From assembly GCA_039796295.1 (NCBI GenBank), contig JBDKJY010000034.1:4325-68324 (forward strand): a stretch of 64,000 bases of DNA. Direction: 5' to 3'. Below, piece by piece: positions 8,561 to 23,340 of the stretch (positions are counted from its first letter, which is position 1; each line of letters starts with the position of its first letter). Origin of the DNA: Verrucomicrobiota bacterium. GTDB taxonomy: Bacteria; Verrucomicrobiota; Verrucomicrobiia; Limisphaerales; SXTU01. Made by a program: the position numbers and the translations under genes. A model generated the notes under the pieces. The model was not told the DNA's origin. It saw only the letters and a program-made list of their open reading frames with translations, and made no database searches.

Positions 8561-8834
<274 letters not shown>

Positions 8835-8901: not shown

Positions 8902-8914
8902 AACATCCCAACAG

Positions 8915-9369: not shown

Positions 9370-9569
9370 AGCGCTCCTTTGTCGTCACGCTCGACGCTCA
9401 GTTCGTGCCCGAGGACGAAGCCACGGGGCAGCAAACGGAGGCCGCGCGCGAGGTTGTGCGCGTTGCCGTTCAACGCGCCATGCCCCACGGCGTCCACGTC
9501 ACCGTCACGGAGAATCGCGGGCTGCCGCTCCATCCCTTCAACCCTCAGCCCGCCCCGCGACATGGTTGA
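9366..9569 (+). CDS. Hypothetical early protein
   Basis: GTG at 9366 overlaps the preceding TGA: VKRSFVVTLDAQFVPEDEATGQQTEAAREVV.. Lies within track ORF 9294..9569. Confidence 0.4.
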   Translation: MKRSFVVTLDAQFVPEDEATGQQTEAAREVVRVAVQRAMPHGVHVTVTENRGLPLHPFNPQPAPRHG

Positions 9570-10160: not shown

Positions 10161-10162
10161 CC

Positions 10163-10441
10163 ATGCCCCTGCTCACCACCAAAGACCTTGCGCGGAAAAT
10201 GGCCGTGCATCCAAAGACGGTGAAACGCTGGTGGCGCAAGCTCAAGGTGAAGCCGGATGCGTGCTCGGCTCACCATTGCCACCGTTGGACCCCCGCCGCC
10301 GCCGCGCGCCTGCTCAAGCGCTGGCGGGCCTACTGGGAGAAGCGCGGCCAACGCGCGCCGGAGGCCACAACGAAGTTCGCCGGGCTGGTGAAGCGTTGCC
10401 GCGAGAAGCAACAGCTCCGGCTCAAGCTCACGTTTCAATGA
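10163..10441 (+). CDS. Helix-turn-helix DNA-binding protein (excisionase/AlpA-like)
   Basis: MPLLTTKDLARKMAVHPKTVKRWWRKL.. Typical short phage HTH. Confidence 0.55.
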   Translation: MPLLTTKDLARKMAVHPKTVKRWWRKLKVKPDACSAHHCHRWTPAAAARLLKRWRAYWEKRGQRAPEATTKFAGLVKRCREKQQLRLKLTFQ

Positions 10442-10671
10442 CTCCCGCCGCTGCCGAGTGGGAAACCATCCGTGAGGCTTTCCGCACCGGCGACGCCTTC
10501 ACGCTGCTGGGATTGGTGAGCGCGGACGGACGCCGCCGCCGCTTCGCTCGCCTGTTGCCCAAACACGATTTTTTGGCCGGAGCTGCCGCCGCCGAAATGC
10601 ACCTGGACGGACAGCTCTCCCTTGATGAAGTCGCCCGAATTTTGGATTACCTGAAGTCCCCCCATGAGTGA
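10438..10671 (+). CDS. Hypothetical early protein
   Basis: ATGA overlap: MTPAAAEWETIREAFRTGDAFTLLGLV.. Lies inside track ORF 9940..10671. Confidence 0.4.
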   Translation: MTPAAAEWETIREAFRTGDAFTLLGLVSADGRRRRFARLLPKHDFLAGAAAAEMHLDGQLSLDEVARILDYLKSPHE

Positions 10672-11989
10672 AAACCCCACGAAGAACCAGATTGCGAACG
10701 CCTACAAGGCTGCCCGCCAGCGTCGCCGCCCCACGAAAGCCTTTTACTGGCCGCGCCACGGCTTCTACACGAAGAACGTGTTCAAGGAATGGCAGCGCAC
10801 GGAGCGCGGCACGTTGCAGAAGATGATGGTCAAGGGCGGTTACGTCTCCGGCGACGACCGGAACATCCTCTCGCCGGCCAGCAACGCCATGCTCGAAATT
10901 GAGCAGAAGCAAACCGTCCACTACGCCGGTCCCATCGCGGGGGCGCGGGCGGGCATGACGCAGAGCTGCGGTTTTCGCGTGCTAGTCACCAGCTCGCCCA
11001 CGCTGCCCACGGCCAAGAAAGGCGAGTTCCCGCTGTGGGACGAAATCCTCTCCGCGCACTACGGCGACGCGCTGCCCTACTTCCTCGGTTGGCTGTCGGC
11101 GGCTTACGAGCGCGTTCGCCTCGGGGGCGGGCCGATGCTCCCGGCGCTGGGCTTGGCGGGGGAGCGCGACCTCGGCAAATCCCTCTCGCAAAACCATCTC
11201 GTGACGCCGCTCCTGGGCGGGCGCGTGGCGAACCCGGTGCGCTACTTCACGGGCGGGACGGACTTCAATGAGGACTTGTGCGGAGCCGAACACTTGATGA
11301 TCGAGGACGCGGAGCGGATGAACAAAGAGAAGCGGGCCATGTTCGGCGACATGGTGAAGAGCCACGTCGCGAACGAAAACGCCAGCCTACACCCCAAGGG
11401 CGACAAGGCCGTCAACGTGCGGTGCGTGTGGGCCATCTCCATCTCGACCAACACGGAGCCGCAGAACCTGAACCTCCTGCCGCTGCTCGACTCCAGCATG
11501 GCGGACAAGCTCATGCTGTTGCGCGTGCTGGCCCGGCCCAAGTGCCTGCCCTCGCCGGACGATTATCAGGGCTTCGCGAGGTTCGGAACGGCGCTGCGGA
11601 AGGAACTCCCGGCGCTGCTCTGGCACGTCCTCAACTACAAGCTGCCCAAGGAATGCCGGGGGACGCGCTCGCTGGTGCGTTGCCATCGCGACGCGCACTT
11701 GATGGGCCTCGTCATGGAAGACTCGCCCGTCTCGAAACTGCTCTGGCTCGTGACGGAAGCGGAAGTCGTGAACGGCCAGCCCAAGGAACTGTTGAGTCAC
11801 GAACTCGAAAGCGCGCTGCGCAAGGCGGTGCCAGAAGAGGCGGCGCGGCTCTTCCAACATTTCAGCGCGGGCTACCTGTTGCGCGAGGCGGCGAAGAGCT
11901 ACCCGGCGCGCGTGGCCCACGCGGGCGCGGCCCACGGCGGGCTGACGCGGTGGAAGCTCTCGCCGGAGTTGAAGGAGGGGCAGCCGTGA
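10664..11989 (+). CDS. SF3-helicase-like replication NTPase (phage/plasmid primase C-terminal, DUF5906-like)
   Basis: 441 aa. Walker A-like GLAGERDLGKS, Walker B HLMIEDAE. Overall resembles D5/P4-type primase-helicase C-terminal domains. Confidence 0.65.
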   Translation: MSENPTKNQIANAYKAARQRRRPTKAFYWPRHGFYTKNVFKEWQRTERGTLQKMMVKGGYVSGDDRNILSPASNAMLEIEQKQTVHYAGPIAGARAGMTQSCGFRVLVTSSPTLPTAKKGEFPLWDEILSAHYGDALPYFLGWLSAAYERVRLGGGPMLPALGLAGERDLGKSLSQNHLVTPLLGGRVANPVRYFTGGTDFNEDLCGAEHLMIEDAERMNKEKRAMFGDMVKSHVANENASLHPKGDKAVNVRCVWAISISTNTEPQNLNLLPLLDSSMADKLMLLRVLARPKCLPSPDDYQGFARFGTALRKELPALLWHVLNYKLPKECRGTRSLVRCHRDAHLMGLVMEDSPVSKLLWLVTEAEVVNGQPKELLSHELESALRKAVPEEAARLFQHFSAGYLLREAAKSYPARVAHAGAAHGGLTRWKLSPELKEGQP

Positions 11990-12666
11990 GTTGGCTCGGC
12001 TCCAAAGGGGGGAACGGGGTATGGCAGCGCATCCTATCGGAGATGCCGAAACACGACCTCTACATTGAGCCTTTTTGCGGAGCGGCCGTCATCGCCAAAC
12101 GCAAACTTCCCGCGCGCGAGACGTGGTTGGTGGACGCGGACCCAGCCGCGCCGGGGCTGGCGATGACGCAGGCGGAAGTCTTCGTCGGTTGCGCACTGCA
12201 CCATCTGCGGGAATGGCGTTGCTCGATGGACTGGGGGACGTTGGTCTATTGCGACCCTCCCTATTTGAGGAGCGTTCGCGGCGCGCACCGCTACCGCGTC
12301 GAATTCGACACCGAAGACCAACATCGGGAGCTGATTGGCGAGCTGCGGTCGCTCCAATGCTTTGTCATGCTGTCGGGTTACGCATCGTTCCTTTATGCGG
12401 AGCTGCTTTCAGACTGGCGGCAAGTGCGGATTCCGACGGTGAACCGTGCCGGGAAGCCCGTTACGGAATGCCTTTGGATGAACTTCCCCGCCACGGTGGC
12501 ACGCCACGACGTGCGGTTTCAGGGTGACACCTTCCGGGAGCGCGAGCGCATAAAACGCAAGGCGGAGCGCTGGCACCGGAAATTTCTGGCGATGACGGCC
12601 GGCGAACGTGCGGCCGTGCTCGCCAAACTTAGCGAGGTTAGCAGCCTGAACGATCCGGGCGTCTGA
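11986..12666 (+). CDS. Orphan DNA N6-adenine methyltransferase (Dam/D12 class)
   Basis: GTG overlaps the preceding TGA. Motif I EPFCGAA, motif IV YCDPPY. No adjacent endonuclease. Confidence 0.8.
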   Translation: MSWLGSKGGNGVWQRILSEMPKHDLYIEPFCGAAVIAKRKLPARETWLVDADPAAPGLAMTQAEVFVGCALHHLREWRCSMDWGTLVYCDPPYLRSVRGAHRYRVEFDTEDQHRELIGELRSLQCFVMLSGYASFLYAELLSDWRQVRIPTVNRAGKPVTECLWMNFPATVARHDVRFQGDTFRERERIKRKAERWHRKFLAMTAGERAAVLAKLSEVSSLNDPGV

Positions 12667-13109: not shown

Positions 13110-13430
13110 ATGTCTGTTTCACATGAGAACCCTCCGCCTGCCGCTGAAACGCCCACTCCCGCGCCCGCCCCGCCCCCCGCTGCCGCGCTCGTCGCCGAGG
13201 GCTTGGACCCCGCCGAACTCCTCGCCCTTCGCGCCGAACTCGAAACGGAGCGCAAGGCCCGCGCCGCTGCCGAGTCAGGCCGCAAGTCCGCCGAAACCAA
13301 AGCCGCCGAAGCGGAACGGCTCGCCCAAGAGTTGATTGCGGCGACGAAGGCCAAGCCGGATGAAGCCCCCATCGTGACGCGGCGGCGCGGGCCGCTGGGC
13401 GTGCTGTCGGCGTTTCGGCAGGTGAGTTGA
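13110..13430 (+). CDS. Hypothetical Pro/Ala-rich coiled-coil protein (first late gene)
   Basis: 106 aa: ..LLALRAELETERKARAAAESGRKSAETKAAEAERLAQELIAA.. Confidence 0.5.
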   Translation: MSVSHENPPPAAETPTPAPAPPPAAALVAEGLDPAELLALRAELETERKARAAAESGRKSAETKAAEAERLAQELIAATKAKPDEAPIVTRRRGPLGVLSAFRQVS

Positions 13431-13451
13431 GAGTTGGTGAGTTGAGAGTTG
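13422..13451. repeat. Tandem 15-nt (2 x ~7) repeat GTGAGTTGAGAGTTG x2
   Basis: gtgagttgagagttg gtgagttgagagttg, spanning the stop codon of 13110..13430. Confidence 0.85.
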
Positions 13452-13479
13452 CGAGGCACCCTTAGACCCCCATCCCCTT

Positions 13480-14295
13480 GTGGCAAATCCTAACCCGTTT
13501 GTTCCGCCGTCCGGCGCTGTCGCCGGAGCAACTGCAACACCGGCAGCTCCTAGCGCTGTGGCGGCGTCCGTCGCACCGGTGGCCGCTGGCGTGGCTCCTC
13601 CGGCTGGTCAATCACCGGCGGCATTCGGTGGCCATCGCGGCGGCGGAAAGAAGCGCCTCGACGGCCTCACGGCTGGCAGCGAGGAAGCGAAGGCGGCAGA
13701 CCGAAAGAAGGACCGGGAGCGCATGGCCGCGAAGCGCGCTGGCCTCAAGGCTGCGTCTTTGCCGCCGGTGCTGCCGTCGGCTGGTGCGGCCAGTGGCGGA
13801 GCGCCTGACGCGGCTCCTGCTGCCGCTGGCGGTGCGCCTGCTGTGCCATCTGGTGAGCCTTTTTCTGTGGGCGGTGCTGTGGGCGCTGTGGTGTTGTGGA
13901 GTCGGGGAATGCTCGAACGCCCGGCGCAACTCGCCGTGCGCATCGCGGACCGGCTCCGCGTCGCGGCCTTGATGAAGCGGCTGGACGAATCGCCCGTGCC
14001 CGTGCCCGTGCGGGACGAGGTGAAGAAGTCCCTCGCGCTGGCGGAAGCGGCCAAGAAAGACTTCGCCTTTGCCATCGCACACGCGGCGACGGTGGAGTTG
14101 AACACGCGGAGCATCGGCGGCGCGCAACACTCGCACTGGCTCGACGTGGCGATGACGGGCGCGGAGCTGGTGAACTCGCACTTGCAGACGGTGGAGAAGA
14201 TCGACGAACTGATTTTGGCGTGCGCGGCGGAGAAGCGGGCGGAAGCCGGGAGTCAGAAGCCGGAAGGGGCGGAGCCTTCGCCCCGCCATGCCTGA
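13480..14295 (+). CDS. Hypothetical late protein with low-complexity Ala/Pro N-terminal half
   Basis: 271 aa with a GTG start. The C-terminal half is helical. Overlaps the ATPase start by 8 nt. Confidence 0.5.
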   Translation: MANPNPFVPPSGAVAGATATPAAPSAVAASVAPVAAGVAPPAGQSPAAFGGHRGGGKKRLDGLTAGSEEAKAADRKKDRERMAAKRAGLKAASLPPVLPSAGAASGGAPDAAPAAAGGAPAVPSGEPFSVGGAVGAVVLWSRGMLERPAQLAVRIADRLRVAALMKRLDESPVPVPVRDEVKKSLALAEAAKKDFAFAIAHAATVELNTRSIGGAQHSHWLDVAMTGAELVNSHLQTVEKIDELILACAAEKRAEAGSQKPEGAEPSPRHA

Positions 14296-14962
14296 CTGGT
14301 CCCTATCCCCCCACTGCGCTCTTGTCGTCGGCGCGTCCGGCTCGGGGAAGACGACCTTCTGTCAGCGCTACCTGGTGAACCGCGCGACGGAACAAGCCGC
14401 GAACCCCGCGCCCGCCGTTTGCACGTTCGTCTTTGACTACAAGCTGGAGTTTTCGCAGCGCCTGGGCATCCCCGCCGTGGGCACGGTGCGCGAGTGTGAA
14501 GCGGCCTTGGCCTCGCGGTGGCTGGTGTTCAATCCCTTCATCATGTTCCGCAGTGAGGAGGGGCAGGAAGCGCCGGAGCGGCGGGCCTTCGCGTGGTTCT
14601 GCTCGTGGGTTTACGACGTGGCGCGGCGCGGGCCGGGGCGCAAAGTCTTTCACTGTGACGAGGCACACAACTTCCTGCCCACGCGCTCCGATATGCTACC
14701 GGCTTACTTCTCTCGCATCCTCCGCGAGGGGCGGGCGGAGGATTTGGAAGTGCTGCTCTCGACACAGTTCCCGAAGGATTACGCGCGCATTGTGCGCAGC
14801 TCCGTCACGGAATGGGTGGTGTTCAACACGGTGGAGAAGGACGAACTCGACGCCGTGCGCCCCTACTTCCCCGGCGTGGACCGCGCGGCGGCTCTGCGTC
14901 CGGGGGAATACCTCGCGGTGAATCGCCACTCGGGAGCCGAGCTGGCGGGGCGGGTGTTTTAG
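14288..14962 (+). CDS. Small P-loop ATPase, HerA/FtsK-type (candidate genome-packaging ATPase)
   Basis: 224 aa. Walker A GASGSGKT near the N-terminus, Walker B VFHCDEAHNF. No transmembrane segment. Confidence 0.65.
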   Translation: MPDWSLSPHCALVVGASGSGKTTFCQRYLVNRATEQAANPAPAVCTFVFDYKLEFSQRLGIPAVGTVRECEAALASRWLVFNPFIMFRSEEGQEAPERRAFAWFCSWVYDVARRGPGRKVFHCDEAHNFLPTRSDMLPAYFSRILREGRAEDLEVLLSTQFPKDYARIVRSSVTEWVVFNTVEKDELDAVRPYFPGVDRAAALRPGEYLAVNRHSGAELAGRVF

Positions 14963-15366
14963 AAGGCCGCGCTTGGGTCAAGTAGGGGGAGCTTGGACGC
15001 TTCCTTGAAGTGCTTCTGGTTCGTCGTGACGATGGCTTTGCAGCCCTCGCGCTCGGCGACGGTTGCGTGCATCCAGTCGTGAATGTTCGCCCCTTGAATG
15101 TTCGCGGCCGCTGCCAGCTTCACTGCGGCCAATGACTCCCCGCCGTCCAAATCCGCAAAAGAGACGGCGGCAAAGGTGGACTGCGCCCCTGCGGACGCCA
15201 CTTCGGGCGAGAACTGAACGCGCGTGAGGGTCCCTTTGACGGGCACCGTGATCCCCCCGGTGAGGCTCCGGTAAAACTCCGCGACGGAGTGGCTTCGTGT
15301 AACGCCCTTGGGCGCGGTATCCTTCCGCCAAGCGCGGATGAGGGCCGAAGCGTCGAGATAGTTCAT
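14959..15366 (-). CDS. PIN-domain (VapC-like) toxin
   Basis: MNYLDASALI.., ..IHDWMHATVAEREGCKAIVTTNQKHF. 4-nt ATGA overlap with the upstream antitoxin. Confidence 0.75.
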   Translation of the reverse strand: MNYLDASALIRAWRKDTAPKGVTRSHSVAEFYRSLTGGITVPVKGTLTRVQFSPEVASAGAQSTFAAVSFADLDGGESLAAVKLAAAANIQGANIHDWMHATVAEREGCKAIVTTNQKHFKEASKLPLLDPSAAF

Positions 15367-15587
15367 TCGCGGGCCTCCGCGATGGCTTGATTTATGCCAT
15401 CATTCAGCTCGGCATCGGAGAGTTCCAAGGCCCGAAACTCGGCGGCGGACATCTTCACCACCGGGGCGTCGGCTCGAATCGTGACGAGGGGTTTGCCGTG
15501 TTCCGTCACGCGGACCGTGCGGCCCATTGCGGCGGCGCGGAACACGCGGCGGGTGTCTCGGTGGGCTTCGGTGAGTGTAGCTTGCAT
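15363..15587 (-). CDS. Phd/YefM-type antitoxin
   Basis: Internal ATG of ORF 15363..15794: MQATLTEAHRDTRRVFRAAAMGRTVRVTEHGKPLVTIR.. Confidence 0.7.
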   Translation of the reverse strand: MQATLTEAHRDTRRVFRAAAMGRTVRVTEHGKPLVTIRADAPVVKMSAAEFRALELSDAELNDGINQAIAEARE

Positions 15588-15705
15588 GGGGGCAACAATA
15601 CGCACTATACGCACTTTGGGAAGCTCAAACCTCCGCTTTGGCCCCCCATCTTGGAACACTGAATCCCCACTCCTACCGTCTGCCGGGTCCAAGAAACTGT
15701 CCGTG

Positions 15706-15733
15706 GGGCGAACGGGAACGGGAACGGGAACGC
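15706..15733. repeat. Hexanucleotide tandem repeat (GGGAAC) x4
   Basis: ggggcgaacgggaacgggaacgggaacgcgg, in the intergenic region upstream of the capsid-gene block. Confidence 0.8.
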
Positions 15734-15793
15734 GGTTTCGGGGGAACAAACGGGTTAAAACCCCTGTAAATGAGGGGGACGGCGGACGCGACA

Positions 15794-15816
15794 AAGCGCT
15801 CCCTTATGCGGACTGC
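15794..15816 (+). promoter_or_regulatory. Conserved 23-nt motif, copy 2 (upstream of 15966/16132)
   Basis: aagcgctcccttatgcggactgc, paired with 13050..13072. Confidence 0.4.
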
Positions 15817-15965
15817 CGCAAAACCACGTCCGGGTTATCGTTTGGGCGTCACGGTTCGCAGTGTAGTAGCCGGGCAGTCGGCGGACAAACCCCCGCCCTC
15901 CCCGCTGAACCCCGCGAAGAGTGCCACTAGTTCAACCGCTGGTCCCTTCGGTCCGGCTTCCTCCC

Positions 15966-16094
15966 ATGAAAATGATCAAAGAGTTCTTCCAAGATTACGG
16001 CGTCCCCATCCTCGTCATTGTCGGCACCCTCGCCGTGCTCAAATTCGTCGCCGACAAGTGGGCACCCTCCCTCCGCCGCTACCTCCCTGTCTGA
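15966..16094 (+). CDS. 42-aa small membrane protein (below the ORF-track cutoff)
   Basis: Hand translation: MKMIKEFFQDYGVPILVIVGTLAVLKFVADKWAPSLRRYLPV*. One transmembrane helix. Confidence 0.4.
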   Translation: MKMIKEFFQDYGVPILVIVGTLAVLKFVADKWAPSLRRYLPV

Positions 16095-16131
16095 ACCGTC
16101 CACAACCGCAACCCCCTCGCCTCTACCTCCC

Positions 16132-17076
16132 ATGATCCAGCTCGCTCCCCTCCCTCAGTTTTCCGGTGTCGCCCTCGGCCAGTGGGCCGAGTGTCCGTTG
16201 CCCGTGCGTGGCACGGACACCTTCCACGACCTCTACCTCCGCGTCACCGGCCAAGGCTACGGCGTGGCGGGGAGCGCGCTAGACATCCAACACGCCATCG
16301 AGTCCATCGAGATTGCGCCTTCGGGCGGCTCGGTTATGACCGTCTTCCCGCGTGCGCTCCGGCTCTGGCAGACGCTCCGCAACTCGAACGCGGATCCGTC
16401 TGACGTGAGCGTCCTGGCCATCCCCTTGGCGCGTCCCGGCCTCTCTCAGGTGAGCGACTGGCCGACGGGAAAGATGGACAAGTGCCTTCTCCGCGTGCTG
16501 CCCAAGGCGGCGCTCCCGGCGAACTCCGGCGCGAACCCGGCGCTCACGCTGACTTCCATCAGCGCCTACTCCCGCTCGGAACAGCTCGCCGCCCCGGCGG
16601 ACTTGGGCGCGGTTCAGAGCTTCCACCAGGCCAGCCACACGCCGGTGGCCGGTTGGAACACCATCGACAACCTCTCCGTGGGCCAGCTCCGCGCGCTCAC
16701 GAAGCTCCTGTTCTACTGCCCGCTCTCGGGCGTGAACCTGACCAACGCCGCCAGCAACGCCGTGACGGCGGTTATGGTGTATCGCGGCAAAGAGCTGGTT
16801 TACGATTCGACGAAGCAGATCGCGATCACCGAGCTGTCGCACAACCCCATCTACCGGGGCTACCACCTCGGCGGCGAGGCGCTGGAAATGTTCCCCTGCA
16901 TCTTCGACGTGACAGGCCGCCCTCAAGACTCGCTGGGCTTGGTCGCTGGCAACGTCCGCCAGACGCTCGTGGTCAAATACTACTGGGACACCGGCGTCGC
17001 GGCGGTTCAGGGCGTGAACATCCTCGCCGAAGGCTGGCTTTCGTCCGGGGCTGACCCGGTGGTCGCTGCCATCTGA
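16132..17076 (+). CDS. Beta-rich 314-aa protein; candidate jelly-roll major capsid protein
   Basis: Internal ATG of ORF 16018..17076: MIQLAPLPQFSGVALGQWAECPLPVRGTDTFHDLYLRVTG.. No long helices and two similar halves. Its position is after the ATPase and before the membrane-protein genes, and a hairpin follows. Confidence 0.5.
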   Translation: MIQLAPLPQFSGVALGQWAECPLPVRGTDTFHDLYLRVTGQGYGVAGSALDIQHAIESIEIAPSGGSVMTVFPRALRLWQTLRNSNADPSDVSVLAIPLARPGLSQVSDWPTGKMDKCLLRVLPKAALPANSGANPALTLTSISAYSRSEQLAAPADLGAVQSFHQASHTPVAGWNTIDNLSVGQLRALTKLLFYCPLSGVNLTNAASNAVTAVMVYRGKELVYDSTKQIAITELSHNPIYRGYHLGGEALEMFPCIFDVTGRPQDSLGLVAGNVRQTLVVKYYWDTGVAAVQGVNILAEGWLSSGADPVVAAI

Positions 17077-17085
17077 AGCCTTGCT

Positions 17086-17110
17086 CCGCGCCGGTTAAAC
17101 CCCGGCGCGG
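17086..17110 (+). terminator. 9-bp GC hairpin directly after the capsid candidate (attenuator or mRNA stabiliser; no T-tract)
   Basis: ccgcgccgg-ttaaacc-ccggcgcgg. Confidence 0.4.
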
Positions 17111-17128
17111 GGCCAACTCCCCCGAACA

Positions 17129-17365
17129 ATGAACCCCGAATACATGGCCCAGTTGGAAGGCGAGTCTTCCGGCAACTCGCTCTTGGATTGGTTTAAGGCC
17201 GGCACGGACCTCTACGCGAAGGTGACGAAGCCCGTGCCCGGTGGTGACCCCGGCAAAGGCACGGCTCCGGCGAAGGCCCCGGGCATGGGTGGCATGAACC
17301 CTTGGGTGCTCGCGGGCGCTGCCGTGGCGGCCCTCGTGGGGCTGGTGCTCGTTCTCCGCCGCTAA
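17129..17365 (+). CDS. Small tail-anchored membrane protein
   Basis: 78 aa. Ends ..NPWVLAGAAVAALVGLVLVLRR. Confidence 0.55.
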   Translation: MNPEYMAQLEGESSGNSLLDWFKAGTDLYAKVTKPVPGGDPGKGTAPAKAPGMGGMNPWVLAGAAVAALVGLVLVLRR

Positions 17366-17430
17366 CCCGCAACCTTCCACCGCACGAAGGAGGTTAACGA
17401 TGCGCTTTTGACTACAAATCCGATGCGCAG

Positions 17431-17727
17431 ATGCACGAAGCCCGTGCGGCACTGCTGGCCGTTCAGCTTGGCGAGGCCAACGCCCGCATTGCCCAGCTCG
17501 AAGACGAGCTGACCGTCTCGAGAGATGACGCGCTGGAAATCGCGACGAACGCGAAGCCCGACGTGAAAATCGACACCGGCGACAAGCTCACCAACAACGG
17601 GCCGGGAACCATCAAGACCAAAGACCCGGCAGGGGACGCCGCTCTCGGCACCGGCCTGGCCATCCTCTCGGCAGTCCTCGGAGTGGTCGGTTTGATCGCG
17701 GTTTTTTGGCGACGGAAAGGCAAATGA
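17431..17727 (+). CDS. Small tail-anchored membrane protein with N-terminal coiled coil
   Basis: 98 aa. Ends ..LGTGLAILSAVLGVVGLIAVFWRRKGK. Confidence 0.55.
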   Translation: MHEARAALLAVQLGEANARIAQLEDELTVSRDDALEIATNAKPDVKIDTGDKLTNNGPGTIKTKDPAGDAALGTGLAILSAVLGVVGLIAVFWRRKGK

Positions 17728-17730
17728 CCT

Positions 17731-17988
17731 ATGGCATTATTCGACCTGTTCAGCAGTCGCAAAACGACTGCCCAAACCAACACGACGACCGCAGTTGACT
17801 CCTACAACCGCGCCTTCAACAGCGTGCGCAATACGGCGGACTCCAATAACATGAATATCATCGTCGGGGCCGCCGCGGACCCGTTCACGAAGTCCGGCGA
17901 CTCCGTTCAAAAGACCGCCCTGCAAGCCGCTGGCGTGGTGTTAGTCGCAGCAGCCATCGCGTGGGCTTACTCCGGGAGGGGCAAATAG
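17731..17988 (+). CDS. Small tail-anchored membrane protein
   Basis: 85 aa. Ends ..LQAAGVVLVAAAIAWAYSGRGK. Confidence 0.5.
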   Translation: MALFDLFSSRKTTAQTNTTTAVDSYNRAFNSVRNTADSNNMNIIVGAAADPFTKSGDSVQKTALQAAGVVLVAAAIAWAYSGRGK

Positions 17989-17989
17989 T

Positions 17990-18139
17990 ATGTCTGCAAA
18001 TACTTCCATGATTGACATCGCCGACGACGGGGGAGACCTCATCATTAACCCCGAGAGCCAGATCGGCCTTTATGTGACGATCGTCGCGCTGGCCGCGCTG
18101 GTGGCATGGCTCCTCTTGAGCAAGAAAGGGAACTCCTGA
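17990..18139 (+). CDS. 49-aa tail-anchored membrane protein (below the ORF-track cutoff)
   Basis: Hand translation: MSANTSMIDIADDGGDLIINPESQIGLYVTIVALAALVAWLLLSKKGNS*. Starts 2 nt after the previous stop. Confidence 0.45.
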   Translation: MSANTSMIDIADDGGDLIINPESQIGLYVTIVALAALVAWLLLSKKGNS

Positions 18140-18142
18140 CCT

Positions 18143-18355
18143 ATGGCCTATGCTGACGTAAGCCTGCAATCGACGGACATTGCTAAAACCTCCACCGGCC
18201 CCGTGTCCCTCGGGGGCACGCGCGGCGGCGGCATGGAGTTCAACTTCGGCGGGATCAATGACTCCCCCACGGGCAAATGGCTTTGGATCGGACTCGCCAT
18301 CGCCCTCACCGGCGGCTTGGCGCTCTTCTACTTCAACCGAAAGAAATCCAAGTGA
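18143..18355 (+). CDS. Small tail-anchored membrane protein
   Basis: 70 aa. Ends ..GKWLWIGLAIALTGGLALFYFNRKKSK. Confidence 0.55.
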   Translation: MAYADVSLQSTDIAKTSTGPVSLGGTRGGGMEFNFGGINDSPTGKWLWIGLAIALTGGLALFYFNRKKSK

Positions 18356-18939
18356 ACTACCGCAACACTCTCCAATCCAAGTCTCAGACCCTCGCCGCCG
18401 GTGCGCGCGTGGAACTGGAAATCGGCGTCGCGGACTTCCTCTACTTTGAGACGTTCCCCTCTGGCTTGAAGGCCGGGTGGAACTCCGCGCACCCCGGCTC
18501 CGTCCCGGCTGGCACCGTGAAGAGTGGCCCGCCCGGAGCGGGCAACTTCCGGCGGCTGGAAATCGTGAACGCCTCCGCCGGGAGCCTCACCTTCGGCCTC
18601 TACTACGGGCAAGGCAGCTTCGCCGTAGCTGGCAGCGCTGGCAGTAGCGGCGGTGGCTCTAGCCTTGTCGCGGCTGAACTGATCTCAGGGCGACGCCCCC
18701 GCATCGCTGCCCTCGCCGCTGGGGAATCACTCACCGTTGCCGGGGCGCGGTATCTCGACGTGTTCAACAAATCCACGACCGCCAACCTCACGTTGACCGT
18801 GAGCGGGCAACCGGCCTACACCCTCGGACCGCGCGAGGGCGTCCCCTTCCCCCTGCTTTCCCCGTCCGAAGGTGCCTATAGCTCTGTGCTCGTCGAGTGC
18901 CCGGCGGGCGGTTCCGGCGTCGTCGCCTACGTGCTATGA
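18352..18939 (+). CDS. Beta-rich 195-aa protein with two similar halves; candidate vertex/penton protein
   Basis: GTG at 18352 overlaps the preceding TGA (GTGA). Contains VNYRNTLQSKSQTLAAGARVELEIGVADFLYFETF.., ..LEIVNASAGSLTFGLYYG.. and ..TTANLTLTVSGQPAYTL.. Confidence 0.5.
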   Translation: MNYRNTLQSKSQTLAAGARVELEIGVADFLYFETFPSGLKAGWNSAHPGSVPAGTVKSGPPGAGNFRRLEIVNASAGSLTFGLYYGQGSFAVAGSAGSSGGGSSLVAAELISGRRPRIAALAAGESLTVAGARYLDVFNKSTTANLTLTVSGQPAYTLGPREGVPFPLLSPSEGAYSSVLVECPAGGSGVVAYVL

Positions 18940-19778
18940 GATTCCCCGTCTCCCTCGCCGATGTGACCGGCCTTCAAGCGGGCTTGGACGCCCGGCTCCT
19001 TTCCGCGTCCAACCTCTCCGACCTCGCATCCGCTGCCACCGCCCGCGCCAACCTCGGAATTGGAACCGGCTTTGCCACCTTCCTCCCGACCGACATCGCG
19101 GGCCTCACGCAATGGCTCGACGCGGGCCGGATGTTTGGCGTCGCCGACGGAGCAGCCGTGACGAGCTGGCGGGACATGAGCGGCAACGCGCGCGACTACT
19201 CGCAGGCCACGACCGCGAAGAAGCCCACCCGGCAACTGAACATCCAGAACGGCCTTCCCGGCGTGCTCTTCGACGGCGTGGACGATTACCTTGACGGCGC
19301 GGCGGTGAGTGCCACGCACACCGTGGGGGCCTTCTCTGACTTCGTGGTGTTCAAGCCGCGCGTGCTCAACAACGCCACCGGCAGCTATACCGGCGAAAGC
19401 GTCTTGACCACCGCGTCCGGCGGCAACTGGGGCCTCACCGTGAAGAGCGATTTGACTTTTGACGCCTACCATTGGGATGGCAGCTACGACCTCCTTACCG
19501 TTGCGGGCGTCATCGGGGAAAACGTCGCCAGCCTCGTGGAACTCCACCACGACACCGGCAACTTGATCGTGCGCGCCAATGACTCGCCAGACCTGACCGT
19601 TGCCAGCGGCAACAGCGGGTCCAACTCGGAGACCAACCGCATCGGCGCGCGCTACAACGTCAACGGCGGCTTCTTTGACGGCTGGATCATGGAGCGTTGC
19701 ACTTGGAACCGTGCCCTCACTTGGGCGGAGCGCACCAAGGTAATGGGCTACCTCCGCGCCAAGTATAACACCCCCTGA
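18936..19778 (+). CDS. Spike/receptor-binding protein: fibre-type N-terminal motif plus LamG (concanavalin-like) domain
   Basis: ATGA overlap. SNLSDLASAATARANLGIG matches a motif common in phage fibre N-termini. GVLFDGVDDYL is typical of Laminin_G_3 domains. Confidence 0.6.
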   Translation: MRFPVSLADVTGLQAGLDARLLSASNLSDLASAATARANLGIGTGFATFLPTDIAGLTQWLDAGRMFGVADGAAVTSWRDMSGNARDYSQATTAKKPTRQLNIQNGLPGVLFDGVDDYLDGAAVSATHTVGAFSDFVVFKPRVLNNATGSYTGESVLTTASGGNWGLTVKSDLTFDAYHWDGSYDLLTVAGVIGENVASLVELHHDTGNLIVRANDSPDLTVASGNSGSNSETNRIGARYNVNGGFFDGWIMERCTWNRALTWAERTKVMGYLRAKYNTP

Positions 19779-19781
19779 ACC

Positions 19782-20084
19782 ATGCGCGCCCTCATCCTGA
19801 TCCCCGCCGCCGTCCGCGACGCCGCGAACACTGCCGCCGCGAGCTTTGACCCCGCTGGCGGGGGCCAGACCTTCACCGTCCCGCTCTTCGCCGCCGGCAC
19901 GGACACCATCGCCGCCTACTGGTGTTCTACTGAAATGAGCGAGGAAGTGTTTGACCAGGTGCAAACCCTCCAGACCGCCTTCCCCGGCTCTGTGGTTGAG
20001 CGCTGGGACCCCGACGTTTCGCCCCGTCGCCCCGGCTCGTTGCTCGCCGAACACGGCTTGACCGCTGAACCCGCCACGCCATGA
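19782..20084 (+). CDS. Hypothetical late protein
   Basis: 100 aa, in the operon. Confidence 0.45.
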   Translation: MRALILIPAAVRDAANTAAASFDPAGGGQTFTVPLFAAGTDTIAAYWCSTEMSEEVFDQVQTLQTAFPGSVVERWDPDVSPRRPGSLLAEHGLTAEPATP

Positions 20085-20524
20085 ACCGGCTCACCCTCCC
20101 CACCGGGCGCACCATCCCGCTCGAATACCTCACCTTTGACGCGGCCAGCCAGCACGCCTACTACGGCTCACTCGACGTCACCGAGTATATGACCCGCGCC
20201 CAGATCCAAGCCGTTGGCGGCAGCGCCTTCGACGTGGAACAAGCCAACCGCGAAGCCAGTGACGCGGCGCGCATCGCCCGGGGCCTCGCGCCCTACGAAG
20301 ACCCGCCCCAGATCACGCCCTGGGAAGTCCTCACGAACACCGCGCGCGGCATCGGCAACGACGTGGCCACCGCCGCGCAAGGTGTGCGGGACTTCGTGGG
20401 CATCGGCCCCGAGAACGCGGGCAAACACTCCCCGCTCTTCTGGTTTGCCATCGTGGCGGGTCTGGGCTGGATTGCCTACCAGCTGGGCGTCTTCGTGTGG
20501 CTACGGAAGAAACTCACCGCATGA
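20081..20524 (+). CDS. Tail-anchored membrane protein
   Basis: 147 aa with ATGA overlap. Ends ..SPLFWFAIVAGLGWIAYQLGVFVWLRKKLTA. Confidence 0.5.
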   Translation: MNRLTLPTGRTIPLEYLTFDAASQHAYYGSLDVTEYMTRAQIQAVGGSAFDVEQANREASDAARIARGLAPYEDPPQITPWEVLTNTARGIGNDVATAAQGVRDFVGIGPENAGKHSPLFWFAIVAGLGWIAYQLGVFVWLRKKLTA

Positions 20525-20694
20525 AGGAAACCGAAATGGGAGAGCGCATCGTGCGGCTCGAAACCGACCACGGCAACACGGTGGGATGGCTCAAGGACAT
20601 TGCCGACCGCCTCAAATACGTGGAGAGGCAAGTCTGGTTCGCCGTCGGCCTCCTTACCGCCCTTCAGCTCTTCCTGAAGTTCTACAAGCCATGA
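20521..20694 (+). CDS. Small tail-anchored membrane protein (holin-like size)
   Basis: ATGA overlap: MKETEMGERIVRLETDHGNTVGWLKDIADRLKYVERQVWFAVGLLTALQLFLKFYKP. Confidence 0.45.
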   Translation: MKETEMGERIVRLETDHGNTVGWLKDIADRLKYVERQVWFAVGLLTALQLFLKFYKP

Positions 20695-21710
20695 CCGCCC
20701 GCTGCCTCCTTGCCTTGATCGTCTCCCTGTGGCTCTGCGCCTGTGCGCAGCCGGAGAAGCCCGCCGCCAAGCCCACCCCCGCCCGTGCTGCACCCTCGCT
20801 GCCGCTGGCGATTGCGTCCGCGAACACCAACGCCGCCGCCGCCCTGGACAAGTCACACCAGCTCGCCGCCACCGCCGCCGCCAGTGTCGCCGCCGTCCGC
20901 GACGCCAACACCAACCAGCCCGCCGGCGTCGCCACCGACTTCATCGCCGACGAAACCGCCCTCGCCCTGGACAGTCTCCCCGCGCCCAGCCCCACCGCCG
21001 CCCTTGCTGCCGAGCAACGCCGCGCCGCCGCCTTCGCCGGGCAACGCGACGAAGCCCGCCGCCTCTACACCGAAGCCAAGGCCAGCGCAGCTGCGTCACA
21101 GACCGAAGCCCGCGCTGCCGCCCTCCGCGCTGCCGACAGCGCCGCCGCCCTTGTCGCTGCCGAGCGCACGCACGCCGCCGAGCTAGAGCGCAACCGCGCC
21201 GCGAACCAAGCCGCCTTGGACGCCGCCTTGCGCGCCGCCGACGAAGCCGCCCAGAAGGCCCGCGACGCGCAGCACAAAGTCATCTTCCGCAGTTTGGTCG
21301 GACTGGGCCTCGCCTGTCTGGCCGGGGCCATCGCGCTCGCTGTTGTCACGAGTGGCGCGATGGTCCTCAAAGCTCTCATGCTGGCCGGGGGCGGTGCCCT
21401 CTGCCTCGCCCTGGCGCAGTTGGTGGCCCATCCGTGGTTTGATCGCGTCTGCGGCATCGGCCTCGCCTTGGCCGCGCTGGGCGCTGCCGCATGGCTCTGG
21501 TTTGAACGCAAGTCCGCCGCCACCGCCGCCACCGCCACCAAGCTCGTCACCACCTTGGAAGAGCAACGCGTCTGCCTCACCCCGGACGGACGCCCCACGC
21601 CCCTGGGCAGTGCCTTGAGCCGCGCGATGGACACCGCCGACAAAGCCGTCGTGAAAGGCCTCCGCCGCGCCGCGAAGATCACCGCCGCCCGCGCCGCCCC
21701 CGCTGGCTAA
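20691..21710 (+). CDS. Lipoprotein-leader, Ala-rich coiled-coil protein with a C-terminal multi-TM block
   Basis: ATGA overlap. MTARCLLALIVSLWLCACAQ.., then a long Ala-rich helix, then ..FRSLVGLGLACLAGAIALAVV..LMLAGGGALCLALAQLV..IGLALAALGAAAWLWF. This is the internal start of track ORF 20214..21710. Confidence 0.55.
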   Translation: MTARCLLALIVSLWLCACAQPEKPAAKPTPARAAPSLPLAIASANTNAAAALDKSHQLAATAAASVAAVRDANTNQPAGVATDFIADETALALDSLPAPSPTAALAAEQRRAAAFAGQRDEARRLYTEAKASAAASQTEARAAALRAADSAAALVAAERTHAAELERNRAANQAALDAALRAADEAAQKARDAQHKVIFRSLVGLGLACLAGAIALAVVTSGAMVLKALMLAGGGALCLALAQLVAHPWFDRVCGIGLALAALGAAAWLWFERKSAATAATATKLVTTLEEQRVCLTPDGRPTPLGSALSRAMDTADKAVVKGLRRAAKITAARAAPAG

Positions 21711-21818: not shown

Positions 21819-22712
21819 TCAACTCTCCACCCGCCAAAACTCCGCGCACTCCGCCTCCTTCACCGGCTGGTGATAGTGCGAAAGCAGGATGGCCGAAGAG
21901 TTCCCTAGCATCGTCGCCACCTTCCCCGCGTCACCGTGCAACGCCAGCAAGTAACTCGCCGCCGTGTGCCGGAGCAGGTCCGACGGCCAGCCCGTCAACC
22001 CCAAGGCCCGCGCCGCGACACGCTTGAACCGGCGCACCGTCGAATTGCTGGGCGACACCTTCCCCGAGCGCAGCGGACACGCCGCCAGCAAGGCCACCGC
22101 CTTCGCGTGCAACGGCACGATGCGCCGCCGCCGCGTCTTCGCCTCGCTCACCGTCAACGTCTTCGTTTCCAAGCACACTTGCCGCCAATCCAGTTTCAGC
22201 AGCTCCGCCGGGCGCACCCCCACGAACAAGCCGAGGATCACGTAAGGCCGCAACACCGTCGGCGCGAGCTTCAGTAGCGCCTGTGCTTGCGCCGGCGAGA
22301 GCACGAACGGCGCAACCCGGTCAATCGTCACACGCTCCAAGCGGTCGCAGGGATTCTTGGCGAGGTAGTCACGGCGCACGCAGAAGGCGAAGAGCGTCGA
22401 GACACGGTTCAGCCAAGTCGCCCGCGAGTTGGGATTCTTGAACTGGGCAAGGAACTCCTCCACCTCCGCCGTCGTCACCGTGTCCACCGTGCGCCCCTCG
22501 CGCCCCTTGGCGAACCGGGCGAGATACCCGGCGAGCGACTTCAAGTAAACGGGCCGCAGATTCGCCGCCCGCTTCGCTTCAAGCAGCCGCGCGATCGCGA
22601 CTTCCAACGGCACGGCGTCGCCGAAGCCGGCCAGTGTCGGGTGACACTGGCGATACCGCTGCGAAAGCTCCGAAAGCAGACACCGCTTGAACTCCTGGCA
22701 CTGGGGGAACAT
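21819..22712 (-). CDS. Tyrosine recombinase/integrase
   Basis: 297 aa. Catalytic pattern ..GVRPAEL.. (R), LLRHTAAS (HxxR), GNSSAILLSHY (H..Y). Adjacent to attR. Confidence 0.9.
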   Translation of the reverse strand: MFPQCQEFKRCLLSELSQRYRQCHPTLAGFGDAVPLEVAIARLLEAKRAANLRPVYLKSLAGYLARFAKGREGRTVDTVTTAEVEEFLAQFKNPNSRATWLNRVSTLFAFCVRRDYLAKNPCDRLERVTIDRVAPFVLSPAQAQALLKLAPTVLRPYVILGLFVGVRPAELLKLDWRQVCLETKTLTVSEAKTRRRRIVPLHAKAVALLAACPLRSGKVSPSNSTVRRFKRVAARALGLTGWPSDLLRHTAASYLLALHGDAGKVATMLGNSSAILLSHYHQPVKEAECAEFWRVES

Positions 22713-22773: not shown

Positions 22774-22824
22774 TGGTGCGTGGTGGAGGGATCGAACCTC
22801 CGACCTATACCGTGTCAACGTAGG
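22774..22824 (-). other. Inverted, diverged 3' half of a different tRNA-Val(GAC) gene (fragment)
   Basis: Its reverse complement, cctacgttgacacggtataggtcggaggttcgatccctccaccacgcacca, aligns to the host tRNA 3' half with about 7 mismatches. These include compensatory T-stem changes (GGAGG/CCTCC against GCAGG/CCTGC). Confidence 0.75.
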
Positions 22825-22832
22825 GGCCAACT

Positions 22833-22878
22833 TTGACACGGTAGGGGTCGCAGGTTCGAACCCTGCACCGCGCACCAT
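22833..22878 (+). repeat. attR core (duplicate of the tRNA-Val 3' half)
   Basis: Identical to 8591..8636. Confidence 0.9.
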
Positions 22879-23259
22879 TTTCAAAGCCTTCTCCAGTTGC
22901 CGGGCCTTCTCCTGCATCACCGCCTCAAAGCGCTCCTCTAGCACTTGATTGATGATGGCCGACACGTTCAGGCCAATGCACTGCGCTAATTCGATGCGCG
23001 CGAGGTTCGGTCGCGCAATTGGTGAACGCGCACTTGCTGACGGTGGAGAAGTCAAAAGCCGGGAGTCAGAAGTCAGAAGGTGCGAAGACCTGAACCACCG
23101 AGGCACAGGCGCACAGAGGCAGTGCTTTAAACTTTCAGCTTTCAACTCCTCTGCGCTCTCTGTGCCTCGGTGGTTAAAAGCCCATGCCTGATTGGACCCT
23201 GCAACCCGACTGCACCCCGCCGTGTATTAGCCGGGCAGTCGGCGGACAACCCCCGCCTC
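22879..23259. mobile_element. Decayed relic of a second, related element (tandem to the intact one)
   Basis: A truncated RHH homologue (..IELAQCIGLNVSAIINQVLEERFEAVMQEKARQLEKALKMVRGAGFEPATP) reads into attR. 23021..23072 matches 14169..14259 with an internal deletion. 23184.. (MPDWTLQPDC) matches the ATPase start at 14288 (MPDWSLSPHC). 23222..23259 matches 15861..15900. Confidence 0.75.
23093..23174. repeat. REP-like long imperfect hairpin inserted in the relic
   Basis: aaccaccgaggcacaggcgcacagagg .. AT-rich loop .. cctctgcgctctctgtgcctcggtggtt. A related ccacagaggcac/tgttcatcgtg palindrome lies at about 30633..30690. Confidence 0.7.
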
Positions 23260-23340
23260 ACCCTTCACCCGCTACTCGCTCATAGAACGTTGGGCGTCGT
23301 TGTCAGTTTCTTTGTTCTCTCTCCTCTGCTGGTCGACCGT

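Follow-up and report, generated by a model that had tools for sequence, protein, structure and literature searches.

We find that positions 13110-21710 of the window (the whole 64,000-nucleotide stretch of DNA that was analysed) most probably hold the virion-assembly genes of a temperate phage of the PM2-like (Vinavirales-like) double jelly-roll type, which is integrated in a Verrucomicrobiota chromosome and appears to be intact. We put the probability of this reading at roughly 85%. An internal membrane and a particle would be expected by analogy. An earlier note on this DNA had proposed a provirus of PM2, PRD1 or P23-77 type; the PM2-like version fits, whereas the PRD1 and P23-77 models do not. 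Features described below lie on the plus strand unless stated otherwise.

Predicted capsid protein and packaging ATPase

The 314-aa protein encoded at 16132-17076 is, as judged from its AF2 model, Foldseek and profile searches, a double jelly-roll capsid protein related to PM2 P2. The model (pLDDT 83, pTM 0.83) is all-beta and consists of two eight-stranded halves with a helix in each, which bears out the earlier description of an all-beta protein with two similar halves. The best Foldseek match in the PDB is PM2 P2 (2vvf_A, E 4.4e-16, TM-score 0.68 query-normalised and 0.79 target-normalised), followed by the capsid proteins of PBCV-1, STIV and PRD1. Viral double jelly-roll capsid proteins account for all of the best 50 PDB matches listed and for almost all of the best matches in BFVD. 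The jelly-roll fold on which the earlier proposal turned is thus found, with PM2 P2 on top. In addition, a profile of the capsid family that was built from close homologues only picks up proteins positive for P2_N/P2_C from a library of 1.84 billion (E 1e-6 to 5e-4). Several results count against the PM2-like reading. Specifically, the 314-aa protein alone falls below the Pfam P2 thresholds (E 0.086), the close-family profile gives no significant hhalign match to PM2 P2 alone, and the two proteins are only about 17% identical.

The gene at 14288-14962 codes for a 224-aa FtsK/HerA-type genome-packaging ATPase that is a homologue of PM2 P9. It contains the Walker A motif GASGSGKT and a Walker B-like FHCDE motif, which mark it as a P-loop ATPase, and it shows no hydrophobic segment by hydropathy, in line with the soluble HerA/FtsK-type ATPase noted previously. 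Comparison with PM2 P9 by hhalign gave a probability of 95% (E 3e-8), and the ATPase HMM matched the PM2 P9 ORF at 1.8e-7 and did not match PRD1 P9. HerA and STIV B204 (1e-4) were matched among PDB profiles and FtsK_SpoIIIE (1e-4) in Pfam, with no match to the Zot or TraD/VirD4 coupling-protein families in either. The family check called for by the earlier note therefore places this ATPase with PM2 P9, STIV B204 and HerA, and not with Zot or coupling proteins. How loose family labels can be is seen in PHROG, where the ATPase family goes under 'terminase large subunit'.

Among all ORFs tested with Pfam and PHROG there was no match to terminase nuclease, portal, HK97 capsid or tail families, and we agree that this is not a tailed phage. 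The further argument that no ORF is large enough for a terminase or portal does not hold as worded, because the 441-aa ORF at 10664-11989 is big enough in principle; by homology, however, this ORF is a DUF5906-type replicative helicase.

Vertex, spike and membrane protein candidates

The 195-aa two-domain protein encoded at 18352-18939 is a candidate vertex (penton/turret) protein. Its AF2 model (pLDDT 77) has jelly-roll/cupin-like beta domains at residues 8-86 and 117-194 with a disordered Gly/Ser linker between them, in agreement with the two-lobed beta protein originally described. Foldseek matches include bicupins, XepA, PM2 P2 (4e-4) and the STIV turret protein A223 (8e-4). Against a vertex role, most of the fold matches are to cellular cupins and have low TM-scores, and sequence comparison detected no resemblance to PM2 P1 or PRD1 P31. 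The family is kept even in the distant contig L085, and the stalk repeats between the domains vary among its members. The adjoining gene at 18936-19778, whose start is most likely 18936 (ATGA overlap) rather than 18897, codes for a LamG/ConA-like spike with a fibre-type N-terminus, a candidate receptor-binding protein. The LamG spike of the earlier note is thus present, though its Laminin_G_3 match is weak (E 0.003, below Pfam's cut-off). The homologue in the related contig L084 is 64% identical and matches Laminin_G_3 at 2e-5. The window's protein matches tail-fibre entries at its N-terminus and, in PHROG, a 'virion structural protein' (1.7e-16). L085 has a pectate-lyase-like protein at this position. 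We tentatively read the 195-aa protein as the vertex base and the LamG-like protein as the spike.

The module begins with a 106-aa coiled-coil protein (13110-13430) that has homologues in contigs L002 and L084, and a 271-aa protein (13480-14295), kept in the same two contigs, whose gene is directly upstream of the ATPase gene. Position alone suggests that the 271-aa protein is the counterpart of the assembly factor PM2 gp h / PRD1 P10; no sequence similarity to either was detected, which also counts against the PM2-like reading. Similarly, the 42-aa membrane protein with a single TM helix encoded by the small gene ahead of the capsid gene (15966-16094) is by position the counterpart of PM2 P7, and genes of 39-40 aa occupy this place in L001, L002 and L084. 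Five small proteins of 78, 98, 85, 49 and 70 aa (17129-18355) are candidate internal-membrane proteins of the virion: by hydropathy every one of them has a TM helix at its C-terminal end followed by an R/K tail, and homologues occur in L001, L002 and L084. The genes at 19782-20694 code for a soluble protein of 100 aa, one of 147 aa whose TM helix is C-terminal and one of 65 aa whose C-terminus is hydrophobic (hydropathy); they gave no family match and may act in the membrane or in lysis. L084 keeps both the 100-aa and the 147-aa protein, and the latter is also conserved in L001 and, partially, in L002. Finally, the 339-aa protein at 20691-21710 (start corrected to 20691) has a lipoprotein-like signal, an Ala-rich coiled coil, two C-terminal TM helices and a 64% identical homologue in L084, with no family match in Pfam or PHROG. 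Of the at least seven small proteins said to end in a helix and a short R/K tail, six do so (78, 98, 85, 49, 70 and 147 aa) and a seventh does not; the tail of the 42-aa protein is longer, and the 65-aa protein lies below the hydropathy threshold.

The high third-position GC of the late genes (0.72-0.89), together with homologues in three other contigs, indicates that these ORFs are real genes. The late module is common to L084, L001 and L002, where the capsid proteins are 41-57% identical, and its gene order is that of PM2: first the gene in gp h position, next the ATPase and a small membrane protein, then the capsid protein with further small membrane proteins behind it, and finally the vertex/spike genes and terminal membrane proteins. 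Small contigs without host genes also carry the capsid-ATPase pair in PM2 synteny, and L002 is a 15.4-kb contig whose 30-nt terminal overlap indicates that it is circular. The genes of the supposed late operon are all present but do not form a single uninterrupted run, since a PIN-domain toxin gene (14959-15366, minus strand; Pfam PIN 8.7e-6) and that of its Phd/YefM-like antitoxin partner (15363-15587, minus strand) sit between the ATPase and capsid genes on the strand opposite to both. L002 and L084 keep the pair in this position, with identities of 69% and 72% in L002.

Integration, early genes and proposed life cycle

The provirus is integrated at a tRNA-Val(GAC) gene (8561-8636, ARAGORN), the 3' part of which forms attL (8578-8636), with attR, the displaced 3' part of the tRNA gene, at 22820-22878. 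These 59-nt direct repeats are 92% identical (98%, or 48/49, over a 49-nt core) and enclose 14,242 bp, in keeping with the earlier estimate of about 14 kb. A tyrosine integrase is encoded next to attR (21819-22712, minus strand; Pfam Phage_integrase 1.3e-10) and is 71% identical to that of L001. Beside attR lies the remnant of a related element that has lost much of its sequence, from which it follows that decay occurs at this site. The host, placed by the earlier note in the PVC group, is a Verrucomicrobiota member as judged by UvrB (76% identical), and the genomes nearest to it carry the labels Verrucomicrobia/Verrucomicrobiales.

At the left end, a small ribbon-helix-helix-like protein (8586-8835, minus strand; weak CcdA/RHH Pfam match, E 0.012) is encoded divergently from the early genes, with the element's only promoter-like site directly upstream (8870-8843), and is a candidate lysogeny regulator. 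Four early ORFs follow (8879-9163, 9160-9369, 9559-9867 and 9843-10160), two of them Cys-rich; family searches gave no match for them, and GC3 is high in three of the four (0.69 in 9160-9369). The next gene (10133-10441) codes for an excisionase/regulator-like HTH protein (PHROG 66 'excisionase and transcriptional regulator', E 4.5e-5; HTH matches in Pfam) with a 53% identical homologue in L002. The 441-aa DUF5906/SF3-like replication helicase (10664-11989) has a weak Pfam DUF5906 match and is 33% and 32% identical to L001 and L002 proteins bearing PF19263. An orphan N6-adenine DNA methyltransferase of the D12/Dam class lies at 11989-12666 (Pfam MethyltransfD12 2.9e-7; PHROG 56 3e-29); like the PIN toxin-antitoxin pair, it is accessory, probably serving maintenance or protection.

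By analogy with PM2 and PRD1, trimers of the capsid protein would assemble into an icosahedral shell enclosing a lipid vesicle, in which the small membrane proteins would be held by their C-terminal anchors, and the 195-aa protein would sit at the fivefold vertices and bear the LamG-like fibre that binds the host. The ATPase, partnered by the 42-aa membrane protein, would pump circular dsDNA through a special vertex, and the genes at the operon end may serve DNA delivery or lysis. Replication would rely on the SF3-type helicase in place of PM2's rolling-circle Rep.

Alternative explanations

An unlikely alternative is that this PM2-like provirus is defective or domesticated, staying integrated without a full lytic cycle and being retained for its toxin-antitoxin, methylase or superinfection exclusion. 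No lysin or holin was recognised in the element's ORFs by Pfam and PHROG, and the helicase is without the N-terminal TOPRIM primase part seen in L001, both of which count against an intact phage, as does the decayed relic beside attR. Yutin et al. 2022 (PMC9502842) voice the same doubt on Verrucomicrobia prophages, where a missing lysin/holin is a possible sign of inactivation. However, all conserved module genes are full length and collinear with L084, the att core is nearly identical, codon-position GC is like that of expressed genes and L002 is a free circular relative. PM2, too, was long believed to be without a lysin.

The apparently intact PM2-like phage is also favoured over a tectivirus-like (PRD1/Bam35) or P23-77-like element, which we consider very improbable. 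PRD1 does share the P10-P9-small membrane protein-capsid order, its separate penton and spike genes resemble the 195-aa and LamG genes, and its P3 is among the fold matches of the 314-aa model. Yet the E-value for PM2 P2 is some nine orders of magnitude better than that for P3, and the ATPase profile matches the P9 of PM2 and not that of PRD1. The PRD1-like model was rejected for want of protein-primed polymerase (PolB) and terminal-protein genes, and a tyrosine integrase and a circular relative also speak against it; the P23-77-like model was rejected on the single double jelly-roll capsid protein found instead of two single jelly-roll proteins. Scarcely credible, finally, is a non-viral integrative plasmid-like or inovirus-like element in which the ATPase is a Zot/coupling protein and the beta proteins are cellular cupins or lectins. 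The mostly bicupin matches of the 195-aa model and the loose PHROG label lend it something, but the Zot and TraD/VirD4 families are unmatched, the best matches of the 314-aa model are viral, and the capsid-ATPase pair is repeated in PM2 synteny in contigs free of host genes.

Comparison with known systems

The earlier statement that no such viruses were known for Verrucomicrobia or Planctomycetes hosts was overstated. Yutin et al. 2022 (PMC9502842) reported Vinavirales prophages integrated in Verrucomicrobia genomes and listed PM2-type capsid proteins from Opitutaceae, Coraliomargarita and a Planctomycetes bacterium. PM2-like proviruses of Verrucomicrobiota have thus been predicted before, with none isolated. 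By sequence comparison the present element appears to be a divergent new member of them, given the 17% identity to PM2 P2 and the absence of a tblastn match for the capsid protein and ATPase in the GenBank phage collection (release of 31 August 2025); one of 21 family representatives looked up in NCBI was present there (P0011). As compared by published description, the clade A / HGV-2 prophages share the host phylum, PM2-like integration and the lack of a recognisable cell-wall hydrolase and of P15/P16/TR_Z1 regulators, but their hosts are mainly Opitutae and gut-associated. Rhodobacter phage Jorvik (PMC10589892), which has circular dsDNA and a membrane, is likewise temperate and of Vinavirales type outside Gammaproteobacteria; Jorvik is 8.8 kb, without an integrase, and integrates at a dif-like site via XerCD.

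PM2 itself (a Pseudoalteromonas phage; Corticoviridae, Vinavirales) differs in its 10.1-kb genome (14.2 kb here), its 269-aa capsid protein, its rolling-circle Rep P12 where the element has the helicase, and its single P1 where vertex functions may be divided over two genes. Tyrosine integrase with tRNA integration, the PIN toxin-antitoxin inside the late module and the Dam methylase set the element apart, and a P5-type lysin and P13-P16 regulators were not detected in it. PM2 nevertheless resembles it in small genome size, circularity (seen in a relative), late gene order and the topology of P3, P8 and P10, which is that of the element's small membrane proteins. PRD1 (Tectiviridae) and STIV also have a double jelly-roll capsid protein and an FtsK/HerA-type packaging ATPase, and the STIV turret protein A223 has two jelly-rolls; the element is without PolB, terminal protein or inverted terminal repeats, and in both ATPase and capsid protein it is nearer to PM2.

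Boundaries, integration site and host of the provirus

The region 13110-21710 of the window, which the earlier note reported as a virion module, is the late half of a 14,242-bp element. Specifically, the sole tRNA gene in the window, tRNA-Val(GAC) at 8561-8635, has a 3' part (8578-8636, attL) that recurs at 22820-22878 (attR) with 92% identity over 59 nt and 98% identity over a 49-nt core, and a gene coding for a tyrosine integrase (21819-22712, minus strand; Pfam Phage_integrase, 1.3e-10) is located just inside the right repeat. The att repeats and the integrase together define the 14,242-bp length. In regards to the host, the product of a UvrB gene 3.5 kb left of the element shares 76%, 74% and 69% of its residues with its counterparts in genomes labeled Verrucomicrobia, Verrucomicrobiales and Verrucomicrobiota, respectively, versus identities of at most about 60% for other phyla, indicating that the host is a Verrucomicrobiota bacterium.

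Contigs from other samples that carry the flanking host genes stop in or near the att repeat. The repeat alone predicts such ends, which therefore carry no information on excision or on an empty site, and a search for attP did not find the att core in L001 or L002, two contigs of related elements.

Directly to the right of attR, 22879-23263 is the remnant of another, related element that has undergone heavy deletion. This relic holds a degenerate version of the RHH gene from the left end, with protein-level similarity to 8636-8835, as well as fragments that are 86-93% identical to the end of the 271-aa gene (14156-14274, 3' end) and to the intergenic stretch upstream of the 42-aa gene (15857-15897). 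There is also a 22-nt core, TAGCCGGGCAGTCGGCGGACAA, with exactly two occurrences in the window. The relic beside attR and this core suggest that the tRNA-Val site may have been used repeatedly or in tandem. In addition, attR adjoins a second, diverged version of the 3' half of tRNA-Val in inverted orientation (22774-22822, minus strand), which has 3 mismatches over its last 25 nt. The two form an imperfect palindrome of ~105 nt (22774-22878) beside the integrase gene. This palindrome could be part of attP or could provide a second target specificity.

The capsid protein and packaging ATPase resemble those of PM2

Two late gene products, the 314-aa capsid protein (16132-17076) and the 224-aa ATPase (14288-14962), support the conclusion that the element is a PM2-like provirus, for which a particle, an internal lipid membrane and inducibility are predicted. 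An AlphaFold2 model of the capsid protein, made from an alignment with its eleven close homologs (almost all of them from metagenome assemblies), has a pLDDT of 83 and a pTM of 0.83 and shows a pair of eight-stranded beta sandwiches that both carry a helix at the position typical of a double jelly-roll capsid protein. The earlier note had proposed such a model and its Foldseek comparison, and the best match in the PDB is indeed the PM2 capsid protein P2 (2vvf_A; E 4.4e-16; TM-score 0.68 query-normalized and 0.79 target-normalized), followed by capsid proteins of PBCV-1, Singapore grouper iridovirus, STIV and PRD1/PR772. Likewise, the best matches among predicted viral structures are almost all double jelly-roll capsid proteins.

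At the sequence level the capsid protein is ~17% identical to PM2 P2, and by itself it matches Pfam P2_C with an E-value of 0.086, which is below the Pfam cut-off. Searches of PDB sequences with the single protein and with the close-family profile gave only chance matches to glutaredoxin, which was rejected as a relative, and hhalign found no significant match between the close-family profile and PM2 P2 by itself. The A1 profile, which contains only close homologs of the 314-aa protein, retrieved 50 cluster representatives among 1.84 billion, and its weaker matches (E 1e-6 to 5e-4) carry both P2_N and P2_C and are thus genuine proteins of the PM2 type. A wider alignment, A4, matches PM2 P2 at 97% in hhalign, a value that is partly circular since A4 includes true P2-like sequences. 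A rough neighbor-joining tree groups PM2 P2 with 273-282-aa P2_N/P2_C proteins and places the window capsid protein in a large sister assemblage of 275-353 aa, mostly about 290-315 aa. Thus the Foldseek match to 2vvf_A and the reach of the A1 profile indicate that the element codes for the PM2 P2-like capsid protein by which Vinavirales are recognized.

The ATPase has Walker A and B motifs, no membrane segment, and weak Pfam matches to AAA_22, FtsK_SpoIIIE and HerA (DUF87). Of the three packaging ATPases named for comparison by the earlier note, PM2 P9 and STIV B204 are matched. Specifically, a three-sequence profile aligns with PM2 P9 over 142 columns in hhalign (probability 95%, E 3e-8), pairwise BLASTP with PM2 P9 gives 2e-4, and the P9 ORF is the sole match (1.8e-7) of the ATPase HMM among ORFs from six-frame translations of PM2, PRD1 and two further loci. 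In contrast, PRD1 P9 has a far lower score (probability 22%). A search of PDB sequences returned HerA-family ATPases and the STIV B204 genome-packaging NTPase (1e-4). The ATPase also matches PHROG 2666, labeled 'terminase large subunit', an assignment that we rejected because the match is confined to the P-loop domain and 224 aa are far too few to include a nuclease domain. Only a toxin-antitoxin pair and the 42-aa gene separate the ATPase and capsid genes, which gives the element a further Vinavirales trait, a PM2 P9-homologous ATPase encoded adjacent to the capsid protein.

Comparison with other virus groups

The earlier note had proposed a PM2-, PRD1- or P23-77-like provirus, and of these the PM2-like assignment is the one that the capsid fold and the ATPase bear out. 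Tectiviridae have a linear genome with inverted terminal repeats, a terminal protein and a protein-primed PolB; this family was rejected since no ORF matches a polymerase family and the element has an integrase and att repeats. Matsushitaviridae and P23-77-like viruses have two single jelly-roll capsid proteins rather than one double jelly-roll protein, and in the window both jelly rolls are contained in the single 314-aa protein, which argues against this group as well. Inoviridae, which have a Zot/pI-type assembly ATPase and helical coat proteins and no icosahedral capsid protein, are contradicted by the double jelly-roll capsid protein and by an ATPase that has no Zot match in Pfam and instead matches PM2 P9, STIV B204 and HerA. 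Placement of this PM2-like provirus within Corticoviridae, defined by a circular dsDNA genome of ~10 kb and the rolling-circle initiator P12, also does not hold, given that the element has a DUF5906/SF3-type helicase and that none of its ORFs matches a Rep family in Pfam or PHROG.

Early and accessory genes

The ORFs named by the earlier note all exist, as indicated by third-position GC values of 0.72-0.89, expected of coding sequence in a 65% GC genome, and by homologs of nearly all of them in three other contigs; its gene list stands apart from some start positions that needed slight correction. A small RHH-like gene at the left end is divergent from the early genes. There is also an HTH protein that is excisionase/regulator-like, and the replication gene codes for a DUF5906-type helicase without the TOPRIM primase domain that is carried by its L001 homolog. 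A Dam-class methyltransferase (11989-12666) is weakly similar to PM2 gp a (77-550 of the PM2 genome; BLASTP E 1e-4 in a 21-protein database, 31% identity over 55 aa), which has no functional annotation. No lysin or holin is recognizable in the element with Pfam or PHROG, and a promoter and terminator scan gave counts at or below chance.

A PIN toxin/Phd-like antitoxin pair (14959-15587, minus strand) lies between the ATPase and capsid genes on the opposite strand, and occupies the same place in the related contigs L002 (3348-3979) and L084 (2094-2779). The elements that keep this pair have capsid proteins that are only 41-57% identical, and such persistence of an accessory gene pair is unusual.

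A putative two-gene vertex complex

A first homolog search with the 195-aa protein (18352-18939) returned only itself, and a profile search seeded with the positional homologs from L001 and L002 found ten relatives. This family shares an N-terminal domain of ~95 aa and a C-terminal domain of ~75 aa, joined by a segment that ranges from a Gly/Ser linker in the window protein to about six repeats of the AAKQDTQxTRLNLL type. The repeat, AAKQDTQxTRLNLL(A/G)TE, occurs in variable number in the homologs P0062, P0065, P0069 and P0070 and has no match to a Pfam family. As judged from these alignments, a repeat segment of variable length would be the hallmark of an adjustable stalk.

The model of the 195-aa protein (pLDDT 77), whose gene lies where a vertex gene would be expected, has two beta barrels and a disordered linker, and its fold matches are bicupins, XepA, PM2 P2 (4e-4) and the STIV turret protein A223 (8e-4), with TM-scores that are low because the domain arrangement is undefined. 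These matches point to a predicted fold class of jelly-roll/cupin, which fits a penton or turret protein without being diagnostic of one. At the sequence level, the 195-aa protein has no significant match to PM2 P1 or PRD1 P31. The family is also found in L085, a much more distant element with only 23% capsid-protein identity to the window, and there the 195-aa homolog is followed by a 714-aa pectate-lyase-like protein that replaces the LamG-like protein (18936-19778). We infer that the pairing of a conserved base gene with an exchangeable gene for receptor binding downstream of it may reflect the pattern expected of a vertex complex.

Related elements and the proposed lineage

L084 (10.5 kb) has its genes in the same order as the window between the 106-aa gene and the integrase, PIN toxin-antitoxin pair included. 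L002 (15,377 bp, without host genes) is a circular contig, as its termini share an exact 30-nt overlap, support for circularity that applies to this relative only and not to the window element. L001 has the module in common with the window and an integrase that is 71% identical. Compared with the window and L084, both L002 and L001 have the non-structural block, from the replication genes to the ATPase, and the integrase inverted relative to the structural block. L085 (10028-11089) has a faint rolling-circle Rep_1 match, and its capsid protein has a weak P2_C match. The Rep_1 match and the pectate-lyase-like spike suggest that replication and receptor-binding modules have been exchanged within this capsid lineage. 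The conserved genes of the window element are all full length; arguing against full functionality are the missing recognizable lysin or holin and the helicase that lacks a TOPRIM primase domain.

To our knowledge, the hosts of studied tail-less membrane-containing phages are almost all Proteobacteria, and no phage of this kind has been isolated from Verrucomicrobiota, for which very few phages of whatever type are known. Both prophage finders and chloroform-based isolation routinely overlook tail-less membrane-containing phages. The statement of the earlier note that such viruses are uncharacterized for Verrucomicrobia and Planctomycetes thus holds for isolates and not for proviruses, which were predicted in 2022 (PMC9502842). 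Among prokaryotic double jelly-roll elements, PM2-like prophages form the largest group and occur mostly in Proteobacteria (PMC5894146), and most Vinavirales prophages from the gut reside in Alphaproteobacteria and Verrucomicrobia (PMC9502842, Yutin et al. 2022), with capsid proteins from Opitutaceae, Coraliomargarita, Geminisphaera, a 'Verrucomicrobia bacterium' and a Planctomycetes bacterium in the published tree (PMC9502842). Because of these Verrucomicrobia prophages, the kind of element and the host phylum are already on record, and the general picture is unchanged.

What is new is this divergent lineage. Specifically, tblastn of the capsid protein and ATPase against GenBank phages gave no match, and motif scans based on A1 (A4 is too diverse for deriving scan patterns) gave no relatives in GTDB representative genomes, IMG/VR or JGI metagenome contigs; relatives are found almost only in raw metagenome assemblies, and look-ups of the clusters yielded no accession numbers linking the family to the published Verrucomicrobia prophages. 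We put at roughly 40% the probability that the element and its metagenomic relatives, whose capsid proteins of about 290-315 aa are sister to the canonical 270-280-aa PM2 P2 group in the rough tree, constitute a so far undelineated, family-level Vinavirales-like lineage of Verrucomicrobiota marked by a separate two-gene vertex, a PIN toxin-antitoxin pair in the structural module and an unrecognized lysis system. If so, the vertex would consist of a two-jelly-roll base with a variable-length stalk and an exchangeable receptor-binding spike, and the toxin-antitoxin pair within the structural module would be a feature of the lineage. With its exact boundaries, defined gene set and circular relative, this apparently intact provirus is a concrete target for induction, the capsid, ATPase and vertex-protein profiles are markers for finding further such elements, and the element is a case for vertex and lysis solutions without the PM2 P1 and P5 genes.

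Gene order relative to PM2 and other Vinavirales

The PM2 late operon has the order gp h, P9, P7 (34 aa), P2, P3, P4, P8, gp j, P1 spike, P5, P6, gp k and gp l. In the window the late order is the 271-aa protein (13480-14295), the ATPase, the toxin-antitoxin pair on the other strand, a 42-aa membrane protein, the capsid protein, five small membrane proteins, the 195-aa protein, the LamG-like protein, proteins of 100, 147 and 65 aa, and finally a 339-aa lipoprotein-like membrane protein. The same conserved gene order, including a 40-50-aa P7-like gene between the ATPase and capsid genes, is found across Vinavirales (PMC9502842), of which Jorvik, from Rhodobacter, is the second well-studied member (PMC10589892). 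The position of the gp h/P10-like assembly factor upstream of the ATPase is occupied by the conserved 271-aa gene, for which hhalign against PM2 gp h and PRD1 P10 was negative with a very shallow query profile.

Six small window proteins, plus two near-matches, have a C-terminal transmembrane helix and a basic tail. This topology, already noticed from the sequence alone, is exactly that of PM2 P3, P8 and P10, in which a soluble N-terminal part precedes a single C-terminal helix with a short basic tail. The predicted internal lipid membrane is based on these small proteins. The Verrucomicrobia prophages of Yutin et al. 2022 lack known lysins and the P15/P16/TR_Z1 regulators (PMC9502842), an absence that they have in common with the window element. 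Finally, the putative two-gene vertex arrangement of the window would be closer to PRD1 P31 plus P5/P2 than to the single P1 of PM2.
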